NCBI RefSeq assembly: GCF_988242995.1
Contig: NZ_OZ547043.1
Length of the DNA stretch: 64,000 nucleotides
Strand: one strand, 5' to 3'
A program made the position numbers and the translations under genes. Positions 25,508 to 32,314 of the stretch are shown here, piece after piece (within the stretch, counting starts at the first letter, position 1; each line of letters starts with the position of its first letter). The notes under the pieces were generated by a model. The model was not told the DNA's origin. It did not search any database and was given only the letters and a program-made list of their open reading frames with translations.

Positions 25508-25539
25508 TAGATGTCCAGATGTATTGACGTCCATTAACA
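25508..25539. promoter_or_regulatory. Tandem MetJ operator (met boxes) in the metJ/metBL divergent promoter region
   Basis: Four contiguous 8-bp repeats tagatgtc-cagatgta-ttgacgtc-cattaaca related to AGACGTCT. Confidence 0.75.
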
Positions 25540-25595
25540 CAATGTTTACTCTGGTGCCTGACATTTCACCGACAAAGCCCAGGGAACTTCATCAC

Positions 25596-26756
25596 ATGAC
25601 GCGTAAACAGGCCACCATCGCAGTGCGTAGCGGGTTAAATGACGACGAACAGTATGGTTGCGTTGTCCCTCCCATCCATCTTTCCAGCACCTATAACTTT
25701 ACCGGATTTAATGAACCGCGCGCGCATGATTACTCGCGGCGCGGCAACCCAACGCGCGATGTGGTTCAGCGTGCGCTGGCAGAACTGGAAGGCGGTGCTG
25801 GTGCAGTACTTACTAATACCGGCATGTCCGCGATTCACCTGGTAACGACCGTCTTTTTGAAACCTGGCGATCTGCTGGTTGCGCCGCACGACTGCTACGG
25901 AGGCAGCTATCGCCTGTTCGACAGCCTGGCGAAACGCGGTTGCTATCGCGTGTTGTTTGTTGATCAAGGCGATGAACAGGCATTACGGGCAGCGCTGGCA
26001 GAAAACCCCAAACTGGTACTGGTAGAAAGCCCAAGTAATCCATTGTTACGCGTCGTGGATATTGCGAAAATCTGCCATCTGGCAAGGGAAGTCGGGGCGG
26101 TGAGCGTGGTGGATAACACCTTCTTAAGCCCGGCATTACAAAATCCGCTGGCATTAGGTGCCGATCTGGTGTTGCATTCATGCACGAAATATCTGAACGG
26201 TCACTCAGACGTGGTGGCCGGCGTGGTGATTGCTAAAGATCCGGACGTTGTCACCGAACTGGCCTGGTGGGCAAACAATATTGGCGTGACGGGCGGCGCG
26301 TTTGACAGCTATCTGCTGCTACGCGGTTTGCGAACTCTGGTGCCGCGTATGGAGCTGGCCCAGCGCAACGCGCAGGCGATTGTGAAATATCTGCAAACCC
26401 AGCCGTTGGTGAAAAAACTGTATCACCCGTCGCTGCCGGAAAATCAGGGGCATGAAATTGCCGCGCGCCAGCAAAAAGGCTTTGGCGCAATGTTGAGTTT
26501 TGAACTGGATGGCGATGAGCAGACGCTGCGTCGTTTCCTGGGCGGGCTGTCGTTGTTTACGCTGGCGGAATCATTAGGGGGAGTGGAAAGTTTAATCTCT
26601 CACGCCGCAACCATGACACATGCAGGCATGGCACCAGAAGCGCGTGCTGCCGCCGGGATCTCCGAGACGCTGCTGCGTATCTCCACCGGTATTGAAGATG
26701 GCGAAGATTTAATTGCCGACCTGGAAAATGGCTTCCGGGCTGCAAACAAGGGGTAA
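25596..26756 (+). CDS. metB: Cystathionine gamma-synthase (386 aa)
   Basis: MTRKQATIAVRSGLNDDEQYGCVVPPIHLSSTYNFTGFNEPRAHDYSRRGNPTRD...; 59 upstream codons excluded. Confidence 0.97.
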   Translation: MTRKQATIAVRSGLNDDEQYGCVVPPIHLSSTYNFTGFNEPRAHDYSRRGNPTRDVVQRALAELEGGAGAVLTNTGMSAIHLVTTVFLKPGDLLVAPHDCYGGSYRLFDSLAKRGCYRVLFVDQGDEQALRAALAENPKLVLVESPSNPLLRVVDIAKICHLAREVGAVSVVDNTFLSPALQNPLALGADLVLHSCTKYLNGHSDVVAGVVIAKDPDVVTELAWWANNIGVTGGAFDSYLLLRGLRTLVPRMELAQRNAQAIVKYLQTQPLVKKLYHPSLPENQGHEIAARQQKGFGAMLSFELDGDEQTLRRFLGGLSLFTLAESLGGVESLISHAATMTHAGMAPEARAAAGISETLLRISTGIEDGEDLIADLENGFRAANKG

Positions 26757-26758
26757 AA

Positions 26759-29191
26759 ATGAGTGTGATTGCGCAGGCAGGGGCGAAAGGTCGTCAACTG
26801 CATAAATTTGGTGGCAGTAGTCTGGCTGATGTGAAGTGTTATTTGCGTGTCGCGGGCATTATGGCGGAGTACTCTCAGCCTGACGATATGATGGTGGTTT
26901 CCGCCGCCGGTAGCACCACTAACCAGTTGATTAACTGGTTGAAACTAAGCCAGACCGATCGTCTCTCTGCGCATCAGGTTCAACAAACGCTGCGTCGCTA
27001 TCAGTGCGATCTGATTAGCGGTCTGCTACCCGCTGAAGAAGCCGATAGCCTCATTAGCGCTTTTGTCAGCGATCTGGAACGCCTGGCGGCGCTGCTCGAC
27101 AGTGGTATTAACGATGCGGTGTATGCGGAAGTGGTGGGTCACGGTGAAGTGTGGTCGGCGCGCCTGATGTCTGCGGTGCTTAATCAACAAGGGCTGCCAG
27201 CGGCCTGGCTTGATGCCCGCGAGTTTTTACGCGCTGAACGCGCTGCGCAACCGCAGGTTGATGAAGGGCTTTCTTACCCGTTGCTGCAACAGCTACTGGT
27301 ACAACATCCGGGTAAACGTCTGGTGGTGACCGGGTTTATCAGCCGTAACAACGCTGGTGAAACGGTGCTGCTGGGGCGTAACGGTTCCGACTATTCCGCG
27401 ACACAAATCGGTGCGCTGGCGGGTATTTCTCGTGTAACCATCTGGAGTGACGTCGCCGGGGTATACAGTGCCGACCCGCGTAAAGTGAAAGATGCCTGCC
27501 TGCTGCCGTTGCTGCGTCTGGATGAAGCCAGCGAACTGGCGCGTCTGGCGGCTCCCGTTCTTCACGCCCGTACTTTACAGCCGGTTTCTGGCAGCGAAAT
27601 CGACCTGCAGCTGCGCTGTAGCTACACGCCGGATCAAGGTTCCACGCGCATTGAACGCGTGCTGGCCTCCGGTACTGGTGCGCGTATTGTCACCAGCCAC
27701 GATGATGTCTGTTTGATTGAGTTCCAGGTGCCCGCCAGTCAGGATTTCAAACTGGCGCATAAAGAGATCGACCAAATCCTGAAACGTGCTCAGGTGCGTC
27801 CACTGGCGGTTGGCGTGCATAACGATCGCCAGTTGCTGCAATTTTGCTACACCTCAGAAGTGGCCGACAGTGCGCTGAAAATCCTCGACGAAGCGGGATT
27901 ACCTGGCGAACTGCGCCTGCGTCAGGGGCTGGCGCTGGTGGCGATGGTCGGTGCAGGCGTCACCCGTAACCCGCTGCATTGCCACCGCTTCTGGCAGCAA
28001 CTGAAAGGCCAACCGGTCGAGTTTACCTGGCAGTCCGATGACGGCATCAGCCTGGTGGCAGTACTGCGCACCGGACCAACCGAAAGCCTGATTCAGGGGC
28101 TGCATCAGTCCGTCTTCCGCGCGGAAAAACGCATCGGCCTGGTATTGTTCGGCAAGGGCAATATCGGTTCCCGCTGGCTGGAACTGTTCGCCCGTGAGCA
28201 GAGCACGCTCTCGGCGCGTACCGGCTTTGAATTTGTGCTGGCAGGTGTGGTGGACAGCCGCCGCAGCCTGTTGAGCTATGACGGGCTGGACGCCAGCCGC
28301 GCGTTAGCCTTCTTCAACGATGAAGCGGTCGAGCAGGATGAAGAGTCGCTGTTCCTGTGGATGCGCGCCCATCCGTATGATGATTTAGTGGTGTTGGACG
28401 TTACCGCTAGCCAGCAGCTTGCTGACCAGTATCTCGATTTTGCCAGCCACGGTTTCCACGTCATCAGCGCCAACAAACTGGCGGGAGCCAGCGACAGCAA
28501 TAAATATCGCCAGATCCACGACGCCTTCGAAAAAACCGGGCGTCACTGGCTGTACAACGCCACCGTCGGTGCGGGCTTGCCGATCAACCATACCGTGCGC
28601 GATCTGATCGACAGCGGCGATACTATTTTGTCGATCAGTGGGATCTTCTCCGGCACGCTCTCCTGGCTGTTCCTGCAATTCGACGGTAGCGTGCCGTTTA
28701 CCGAGCTGGTGGATCAGGCGTGGCAGCAGGGCTTAACCGAGCCTGATCCGCGTGATGACCTTTCCGGCAAAGACGTGATGCGCAAGCTGGTGATTCTGGC
28801 GCGTGAAGCGGGTTACGACATCGAACCAGATCAGGTGCGCGTGGAATCGCTGGTGCCTGCCCATTGCGAAGGCGGTAGCATCGACCATTTCTTTGAAAAC
28901 GGCGATGAACTTAACGAGCAGATGGTGCAACGGCTGGAAGCGGCCCGCGAAATGGGGCTGGTGCTGCGCTACGTGGCGCGTTTCGATGCCAATGGCAAAG
29001 CGCGTGTGGGCGTGGAAGCGGTGCGTGAAGACCATCCGCTGGCATCACTGCTGCCGTGCGATAACGTCTTTGCCATCGAAAGCCGCTGGTATCGCGATAA
29101 CCCTCTGGTGATCCGCGGACCAGGCGCAGGGCGCGATGTCACCGCCGGGGCGATTCAGTCGGATATCAACCGGCTGGCGCAGTTGTTGTAA
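26759..29191 (+). CDS. metL: Bifunctional aspartokinase II / homoserine dehydrogenase II (810 aa)
   Basis: MSVIAQAGAKGRQLHKFGGSSLADVKCYLRVAGIMAEYSQPDDMMVVSAAGSTTNQLINWLKL... Confidence 0.97.
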   Translation: MSVIAQAGAKGRQLHKFGGSSLADVKCYLRVAGIMAEYSQPDDMMVVSAAGSTTNQLINWLKLSQTDRLSAHQVQQTLRRYQCDLISGLLPAEEADSLISAFVSDLERLAALLDSGINDAVYAEVVGHGEVWSARLMSAVLNQQGLPAAWLDAREFLRAERAAQPQVDEGLSYPLLQQLLVQHPGKRLVVTGFISRNNAGETVLLGRNGSDYSATQIGALAGISRVTIWSDVAGVYSADPRKVKDACLLPLLRLDEASELARLAAPVLHARTLQPVSGSEIDLQLRCSYTPDQGSTRIERVLASGTGARIVTSHDDVCLIEFQVPASQDFKLAHKEIDQILKRAQVRPLAVGVHNDRQLLQFCYTSEVADSALKILDEAGLPGELRLRQGLALVAMVGAGVTRNPLHCHRFWQQLKGQPVEFTWQSDDGISLVAVLRTGPTESLIQGLHQSVFRAEKRIGLVLFGKGNIGSRWLELFAREQSTLSARTGFEFVLAGVVDSRRSLLSYDGLDASRALAFFNDEAVEQDEESLFLWMRAHPYDDLVVLDVTASQQLADQYLDFASHGFHVISANKLAGASDSNKYRQIHDAFEKTGRHWLYNATVGAGLPINHTVRDLIDSGDTILSISGIFSGTLSWLFLQFDGSVPFTELVDQAWQQGLTEPDPRDDLSGKDVMRKLVILAREAGYDIEPDQVRVESLVPAHCEGGSIDHFFENGDELNEQMVQRLEAAREMGLVLRYVARFDANGKARVGVEAVREDHPLASLLPCDNVFAIESRWYRDNPLVIRGPGAGRDVTAGAIQSDINRLAQLL

Positions 29192-31971: not shown

Positions 31972-32037
31972 AAGTACGTATTGAGTTGATTCATCTGTTT
32001 GTTACCAGTTGATTTTGCAGATCCAGTATTCGGCCTA

Positions 32038-32067
32038 CGCGAGGGCGCAGGCCGAATCAGATGCCTT
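32038..32067 (+). other. Stem-loop downstream of the 517-aa gene (possible terminator or REP-like element)
   Basis: attcggcct-(12 nt)-aggccgaat, 9-bp perfect stem; no U-tract. Confidence 0.35.
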
Positions 32068-32281
32068 AGCATCACCATCCGGTGGCAGGACGTTGTTTTT
32101 CGAATAAGCCCAGGTGTCGCTGTGTTGTCAGAATATCAGTCAAAACGTGCGAGGTGGATTGCGCTATAGAGAAATCTTTTATCGCCTCTAATTAAGATGA
32201 GTTTTTTTCAACTTCCCTGATTTTTCCTCACCATCATTGGTCATTTTTCGGTTGACGCCCCTCGGCTTTTCCTTCATCTTT

Positions 32282-32314
32282 ACATCTGGACGTCTAAATG
32301 GATAGATGTTCACA
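32282..32314. promoter_or_regulatory. MetJ operator (met boxes) in the metF promoter
   Basis: acatctgg-acgtctaa-atggatag-atgttcac tandem 8-mers related to AGACGTCT, about 40 bp upstream of metF. Confidence 0.7.

Follow-up and report, generated by a model that had tools for sequence, protein, structure and literature searches.

In Escherichia coli K-12, the methionine repressor MetJ acts together with S-adenosylmethionine (SAM), binding cooperatively to tandem 8-bp sequences (met boxes) and repressing metJ/metBL and metF. Arrays of such boxes typically lie within about 75 bp of a start codon (PMC3228920), and a review attributes five of them to metF (PMC3274233). Between metL and metF, extraintestinal and avian pathogenic strains (ExPEC/APEC) carry a genomic region, 'GR 31 metL..metF', for which a role as a nucleoside degradation and transport system has been suggested (PMC12928451). 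Here we consider this cluster in a 64-kb stretch of E. coli DNA (contig NZ_OZ547043.1; the whole stretch is referred to as the window), which contains metJ, metB-metL, metF and katG and in which an original prediction had described an insertion between metL and metF with intact MetJ operators on both sides.

Taken as a whole, our analysis makes it likely that the strain combines the methionine cluster usual in enterobacteria and intact MetJ operators, essentially those of K-12, with a short allele of a polymorphic islet between metL and metF, and that metF is transcribed mainly from its own promoter. The top database match for positions 29100-32400 is E. coli NY1601 (99.3% identity). Coordinates of the features discussed are collected in Table 1.

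The MetJ operators of metB and metF

Every 8-mer of the window was scored against the met-box consensus, AGACGTCT, and with the weight matrix and thresholds of Augustus et al. (2011; PMC3228920, Table 3), under whose rule an operator comprises at least two adjacent 8-bp repeats, each reaching at least one quarter of the consensus score (a single-box threshold of 3.15 bits) and together reaching at least the consensus score itself (12.58 bits). Significance was judged against 200 dinucleotide-preserving shuffles. With the published matrix, exactly two arrays qualify in the 64 kb, one between the divergent metJ and metB genes (31.2 bits) and one upstream of metF (26.2 bits), and both exceed the best site found in any shuffle (21.7 bits). 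By consensus counting, the 24 of 32 matches of the metB array were reached in none of the 200 shuffles, and a metF-like five-box score (25 of 40) arose at 0.015 per shuffle.

The four metB-side boxes each match the consensus at 6 of 8 positions and score 6.8, 9.0, 8.6 and 6.9 bits, making up the highest-scoring site of the window. Every base of the metJ-metB intergenic operator region is that of K-12, the region is strongly conserved in Citrobacter freundii, and the MetJ protein encoded here is identical to that of K-12. Along the metF operator (32272-32311), the boxes read, in order, CTTCATCT TTACATCT GGACGTCT AAATGGAT AGATGTTC, with 4, 5, 7, 4 and 5 of 8 consensus matches; the last four, which are the scoring boxes, reach 5.1, 10.3, 3.6 and 7.1 bits, for a total of 26.2 as compared with 24.9 for their K-12 equivalents. 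This operator shares genes, position and tandem 8-bp architecture with K-12 and differs from it at two in-box positions, AAATGGAT replacing AAACGGAT in box 4 (C to T) and AGATGTTC replacing AGATGTGC in box 5 (G to T), and at one position just downstream.

Could these arrays be chance matches, or decayed operators that MetJ no longer binds? No single box matches perfectly (4-7 of 8), metF box 4 is weaker than its K-12 counterpart, and the traditional fifth metF box has a negative score; yet both arrays score above all shuffles, reproduce the K-12 operators exactly or nearly so, have conserved counterparts in C. freundii and lie 63 nt (metB) and 41 nt (metF) ahead of met start codons in a genome stretch with an intact MetJ. 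We regard chance or decay as extremely improbable, and as far as sequence can show it is refuted. Both arrays qualify under the matrix rule, stand close to the start of a met gene, are orthologous to characterised operators and are accompanied by the repressor. They look functional and essentially the same as those of K-12, with MetJ binding predicted at each. By analogy with K-12, MetJ-SAM would repress metJ/metBL through 25501-25532 and metF through 32280-32311. The arrays are the already known K-12 operators, and the observation of them is correct and ordinary.

The original prediction had placed the tandem boxes at 25508-25539 upstream of metB and at 32282-32314 upstream of metF. Boxes exist in both places and both intervals overlap the arrays, but the coordinates are slightly off: the metB interval is displaced by one box and misses the register by a single base, the final 'box' in it, ATTAACAC, scoring −14.5 bits, and the metF interval is likewise out of register. 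Intactness on both sides holds as well, although the metB operator lies 3.7 kb from the variable segment and was never at risk.

On the metF side, the alignment with K-12 picks up again at 32203, which leaves 150 bp to the metF ATG and 49 bp to a −35-like TTGACG hexamer at 32252. The control region is 96.8% identical to that of K-12 over 155 bp and 81% identical to that of C. freundii, whereas the DNA upstream of these roughly 150 bp is wholly unlike K-12. Because a consensus promoter scan called no metF promoter, the case for an intact promoter rests on identity to K-12; the scan returned no convincing nucleotidase promoter either, and statements about promoters here are based on conservation. 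Given this identity and the box scores, the claim that the extra DNA leaves the metF operator and promoter undisrupted is borne out.

The right-hand edge of the variable segment coincides with a low-information, MetR-like candidate box (TGAG-N5-TTCA). At the aligned position, a perfect TGAA-N5-TTCA is present in K-12, E. coli HS-02 and C. freundii, and the A-to-G change is found in the window, NY1601 and B2-type sequences. A scan of 25200-33600 against Rfam (E ≤ 1) detected no riboswitch, small RNA (sRNA) or REP family, the single match being a chance one to mir-14 downstream of metF.

The islet between metL and metF

The sequence departs from K-12 one base past the metL stop codon (29192|29193) and rejoins it at 32202|32203. 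Between these borders, 3010 bp take the place of an unrelated K-12 spacer of 197 bp, in agreement with the extra DNA described originally. Also as described, a nucleotidase gene (30418-31971) is found here, co-directional with metBL and metF; inspection of the segment revealed, in addition, a second and previously unmentioned gene on the minus strand (29155-30285), encoding a protein of 376 residues. With its two divergent genes and their common 132-bp control region, the segment is the short form of a chromosomal islet that is polymorphic among strains.

Among 5426 complete E. coli genomes, and counting as present at least 80% of the segment, the islet was found in 1837 (about 34%), as a single copy per genome. 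In 659 of the 1837 it takes a longer form, corresponding to GR 31, that adds a tsx-like porin gene and two further nucleotidase genes; the short two-gene form of the window accounts for about 1178 genomes. As compared with GR 31 of BEN2908, UTI89 and CFT073-like strains (PMC12928451), the window has the same site, the same divergent gene (376/374 residues) and a homologous metF-adjacent nucleotidase gene and 230-bp spacer (about 91-94% identity). It differs in having two genes only, where the 7.6-kb form has tsx and two more nucleotidase genes, and in the 376-residue gene, which shares only 82% DNA identity with the B2 allele and in the window abuts and overlaps the end of metL. The pattern of identities suggests a recombination mosaic inside the islet. 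Literature searches with the islet protein accessions and CFT073 locus tags found nothing relevant.

The B2 allele compared for the 376-residue gene is that of E. coli GN02050 (13774-14822 of that locus against 29348-30396 of the window; 82%, with about 91-94% for the adjacent nucleotidase gene and spacer). The C-terminus of the window protein is closer to Enterobacter and Klebsiella versions than to that of B2.

How the segment came to differ between lineages is a matter on which the evidence divides. One reading, which we hold to be evenly poised, is that the segment is ancestral at metL-metF in Escherichia and Citrobacter and was lost from K-12-like genomes, the short form being a deletion derivative of a five-gene form (tsx, three nucleotidases and the 376-residue gene). 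In C. freundii, the interval from metL to metF likewise contains this divergent gene pair, with two further genes on the metF side; the E. coli alleles, present in 34% of genomes, are deeply diverged (82-91% nucleotide identity between the window and B2-type); HS-02 retains a decayed, gene-less remnant at the same site, with K-12-like sequence right after the metL stop; and 29193-32202 has neither inverted nor direct repeats at its ends and comes with no target duplication and no integrase. Against loss from an ancestral state, the module occupies unrelated positions on the chromosomes of Enterobacter hormaechei and a Klebsiella sp. and on a further enterobacterial contig, which means that it does move. 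The 197-bp K-12 spacer, moreover, holds no remnant of the segment: it has no homology to the islet alleles, a REP-like 29-nt match occurring elsewhere in the window only.

The segment also lacks the marks of a mobile-element insertion, having no flanking repeats, no conserved catalytic triad in its transposase-like protein and a single copy per genome, and replacing 197 bp of K-12 DNA rather than interrupting it. The extra DNA noted by the original prediction is thus real, but that it was inserted was an assumption, given the missing repeats, the same site in C. freundii, the presence in about one-third of E. coli and the several allelic or decayed forms. Deletion in K-12-like lineages and insertion are equally possible.

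In HS-02 (L018, NZ_CP172818.1, 2730-3876), 1.1 kb separate metL from metF and contain no annotated gene; the interval is made up of pieces of the nucleotidase and 376-residue genes plus spacer. It suggests an intermediate state, of islet decay or deletion. In tblastn and blastn searches, the 230-bp spacer showed no trace of the CMD and LysR genes that C. freundii has. A reading of the segment as a defence island was dropped, PADLOC models having matched neither islet protein.

The nucleotidase shares with the UshA/CD73 family of 5'-nucleotidases a metallophosphatase domain (PF00149, 46.7 bits against a cut-off of 21.5) and a 5'-nucleotidase C-terminal domain (PF02872, 133.6 bits against 23.6). 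It is not, however, an orthologue of UshA, reaching only 149.9 bits with the UshA equivalog model NF007109, far under the curated 600-bit cut-off. It matches the crystallised protein of PDB entries 3IVD/3IVE, annotated 'Nucleotidase' (1106 bits); it is near-identical to 3IVD over residues 19-517, and the 3IVD chain starts at residue 19, after the predicted signal peptide. The nucleotidase has a solved structure, and the islet is a known polymorphic region.

The 132-bp region between the divergent genes (30286-30417) is conserved across four genera, Escherichia, Citrobacter, Enterobacter and Klebsiella. It contains a perfect match to the CRP core motif, TGTGA-N6-TCACA, which occurs nowhere else in the 64 kb (0.04 expected) and is a predicted CRP site; the TGTGA half is conserved in five genera-level loci, the other half reading TC(A/G)CA or ACGCA. 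An inverted repeat, CAACGA-N10-TCGTTG, is kept in the Escherichia, Citrobacter and Klebsiella modules, has one arm changed in Enterobacter, and appears terminator-like on the plus strand in the consensus scan. A third repeat, CTTTCAG...CTGAAAG, overlaps the ribosome-binding site of the nucleotidase gene.

The nucleoside-scavenging genes of E. coli controlled by CRP and CytR include tsx, cdd, udp, deo, nupC and nupG. The islet resembles these in its scavenging theme, in the perfect CRP core of its promoter region and in the tsx-like genes of its longer forms; it differs in that no CytR operator was identified in it and that the 376-residue protein is unrelated to CytR, a LacI-family member. The nucleotidase promoter and its CRP dependence are predicted from sequence, and the islet is probably an independent unit for periplasmic nucleotide dephosphorylation that depends on cyclic AMP (cAMP)-CRP.

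Termination and possible read-through towards metF

The nucleotidase stop codon is separated from metF by 381 untranslated nucleotides. Within 31972-32352, the consensus scan found no canonical plus-strand terminator, that is, no GC-rich stem-loop followed by a U-rich tract. Examination of the spacer did reveal a GC-rich hairpin of 30 nt (32028-32057; inverted repeat I9), with a predicted stability of −20.8 kcal/mol and z = −2.8. B2-type alleles and the decayed HS-02 remnant share it with 100% identity, while its flanks differ by 6-16% and the spacer surrounding it in the remnant is about 84% identical. Such strict conservation suggests a selected 3'-end or insulating element, and the hairpin could stabilise an RNA 3' end, act as a pause site or bind a protein. 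A second, weak element follows it, in which ACGTTGTTTTTCGAA is conserved in all alleles. The spacer as a whole (31960-32260) folds no more stably than its shuffles (z = −0.21), and the local hairpin alone stands out.

The K-12 spacer, by comparison, contains a canonical intrinsic terminator (GUCCGGU...ACCGGAU followed by UUUCUUUUU, with the tail TTTCTTTTT; −13 to −14 kcal/mol, z = −5.1). Since the islet stands in place of this spacer, the canonical metL-metF terminator of K-12 has been removed. At the other end of the segment, the sequence just past the metL stop forms a long imperfect hairpin (fold of 29190-29285, −41.1 kcal/mol, z = −5.05), which may be the metBL terminator in this allele; it is also possible that metBL transcription runs antisense into the 3' end of the 376-residue gene. 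In K-12, RefSeq annotates a 44-residue hypothetical protein on the minus strand (1731-1865 of the locus), that covers both the terminator between metL and metF and the first part of the metF control region; the annotation is probably spurious.

Strong termination immediately after the inserted gene had been set beforehand as the observation that would speak against read-through into metF. It is not seen, the best candidate, found in a relaxed scan, being the bulged hairpin of −9.4 kcal/mol with its five T's. Because no canonical terminator follows the nucleotidase gene, and with the two genes on the same strand, the earlier suggestion of possible read-through stands, qualified by the conserved −20.8 kcal/mol hairpin and by possible Rho termination. 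A stronger form of this idea is that read-through is substantial, so that the nucleotidase promoter would add to metF expression a component independent of MetJ and probably dependent on cAMP-CRP. The short distance between the genes, the replacement of a spacer that held a clean terminator and the CRP-type site upstream of the nucleotidase gene all fit with it. We nevertheless consider substantial read-through unlikely: the hairpin has been kept unchanged between diverging flanks, long untranslated stretches are typical Rho substrates, a bound MetJ array would lie in the path, and no translational or operonic coupling is evident.

We favour instead an arrangement in which metF would still be transcribed mainly from its own MetJ-controlled promoter, and nucleotidase transcripts would probably be stopped or destabilised for the most part within the 381-nt spacer. 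This could be the work of the conserved hairpin, of the weak one with its run of five T's, of MetJ blocking the path when bound and perhaps of Rho. Catabolite-dependent read-through into metF would then be at most minor, which is the weakest step of the argument; anatomy, conservation and distribution are observed, and the degree of termination is what we infer from them. Several points weigh against this account. The conserved hairpin has no U-tract and therefore is not an intrinsic terminator by sequence rules. The consensus promoter scan recognised no −10 element for metF. Of the metF boxes, box 4 scores 3.6 bits as opposed to 5.0 in K-12, barely over the single-box threshold, and the traditional fifth box scores −7.7 bits with the published matrix, with 4 of 8 matches.

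Table 1. Features of the metJ-metF region, in window coordinates (strand left empty where none is given).
Feature	Coordinates	Strand	Description
metJ (met repressor)	25002..25319	-	Translation identical to K-12 MetJ, 105 aa; metJ in annotation of near-identical NY1601
MetJ operator common to divergent metJ and metB	25501..25532		Four tandem 8-bp boxes AGAAGTTT AGATGTCC AGATGTAT TGACGTCC
metB (cystathionine gamma-synthase)	25596..26756	+	386 aa; in-frame ATG at 25596; annotation of homologous genomes
metL (aspartate kinase / homoserine dehydrogenase II)	26759..29191	+	810-aa open reading frame; annotation
376-aa 'cytoplasmic protein', putative islet regulator	29155..30285	-	Two Cys4 clusters (second an IS1/InsA-type zinc ribbon, aa 74-105) and degenerate RNase H-like domain
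Variable segment ('insertion')	29193..32202		3010 bp; BLAST borders against K-12, B2-type and C. freundii loci
Long imperfect hairpin just past metL stop	29206..29264	+	Followed by GTTTATGT; inside 3' coding end of minus-strand gene; inverted repeat I1
Inverted repeat CAACGA-N10-TCGTTG	30293..30314		Candidate operator or 5'-untranslated-region hairpin of minus-strand gene
CRP-type site TGTGA-N6-TCACA	30343..30358		Predicted; between divergent genes, 60 nt upstream of nucleotidase ATG
Periplasmic 5'-nucleotidase	30418..31971	+	517 aa; N-terminal signal peptide; metallophosphatase and 5'-nucleotidase C domains
GC-rich hairpin	32028..32057	+	ATTCGGCCTACGC-GAGG-GCGCAGGCCGAAT, 56 nt past nucleotidase stop; followed by CAGATGCC, no U-tract
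Weak terminator-like element	32060..32100	+	Bulged hairpin 32060-32094, −9.4 kcal/mol, then GTTTTT; tail GTTTTTCG; relaxed scan only
MetR-like box TGAG-N5-TTCA	32198..32210		Candidate; right border of variable segment
Conserved metF control region	32203..32352	+	Holds TTGACG −35-like hexamer (32252-32257) and all met boxes
metF operator	32272..32311		Scoring boxes 32280-32311 TTACATCT GGACGTCT AAATGGAT AGATGTTC; traditional fifth box CTTCATCT at 32272-32279
metF (methylenetetrahydrofolate reductase)	32353..33243	+	296 aa; three substitutions relative to K-12; annotation

A putative islet regulator

The 376-residue protein, a putative regulator, is the one element of the locus that appears uncharacterised. 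Its gene converges on metL and overlaps it by 37 nt, the last eight or so codons being antisense to metL. The protein matches no Pfam family, including Pfam DDE models. Residues 74-105 weakly match the zinc-ribbon models of IS1, IS1595 and InsA, at scores below those that define IS1/IS1595 transposases (NF050000, 21.3 bits against a cut-off of 28; NF033558, 20.5 against 100), and the predicted C-terminal core is confidently modelled as RNase H-like, with transposases and integrases as its best structural matches. An exhaustive, profile-free search of 1.84 billion clusters (E ≤ 0.001) recovered a family of only 115 representatives. No acidic triad is conserved in this family, in which the near-invariant positions are the Cys residues, R197, H228, H246 and E247; E120, the sole acidic residue of the first core strand, is Ala in C. 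freundii. The protein shares with IS1 and IS1595 transposases a weakly matching N-terminal zinc ribbon and a predicted C-terminal RNase H-like fold, but falls under all family cut-offs and lacks both a conserved acidic triad and terminal inverted repeats, and its gene is single-copy and stably syntenic with nucleoside genes. In these respects it resembles a domesticated, non-mobile transposase derivative.

The neighbours of the gene were compared across related loci (L005, L007, L009, L011, L012, L013/L014, L015, L016 and L020), leaving out P0198, whose contig is too short for neighbours, and P0150. In all ten informative loci, which include relatives at 23-31% identity, the adjacent genes serve nucleoside or nucleotide scavenging, and they are divergent from the 376-residue gene in nine and co-directional with it in one. 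Three types of neighbourhood were found: 5'-nucleotidases with or without Tsx; a NupC-type transporter with a nucleoside phosphorylase; and a phosphopentomutase with a phosphorylase and a NupG-type symporter. Judged from gene context only, the protein is probably an uncharacterised regulator, and the same context suggests a domesticated transposase serving as a dedicated one.

A broader proposal, which we put forward tentatively and think rather less than probable, is that a transposase-derived family, combining an IS1/InsA-type zinc ribbon with a catalytically degenerate RNase H-like core, has been recruited for the dedicated transcriptional control of operons that scavenge nucleosides and nucleotides (5'-nucleotidases, Tsx, NupC/NupG-type transporters, nucleoside phosphorylase and phosphopentomutase), acting with CRP at the CAACGA-N10-TCGTTG repeat, and that the output of this control could leak into metF now that the K-12 terminator is gone.

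For the methionine regulon, the finding is that a common strain-specific islet at metL-metF leaves the control signals intact. It also calls for caution in annotation, in that what looks like an insertion is a widespread multi-allele polymorphism, one that replaces the K-12 terminator insulating metF from upstream transcription. A by-product of the analysis is a small, uncharacterised transposase-like family that is strictly linked to nucleoside-scavenging genes. If read-through were to prove true, one-carbon and methionine metabolism would receive, in about one-third of E. coli strains, a catabolite-linked input that is absent in K-12.

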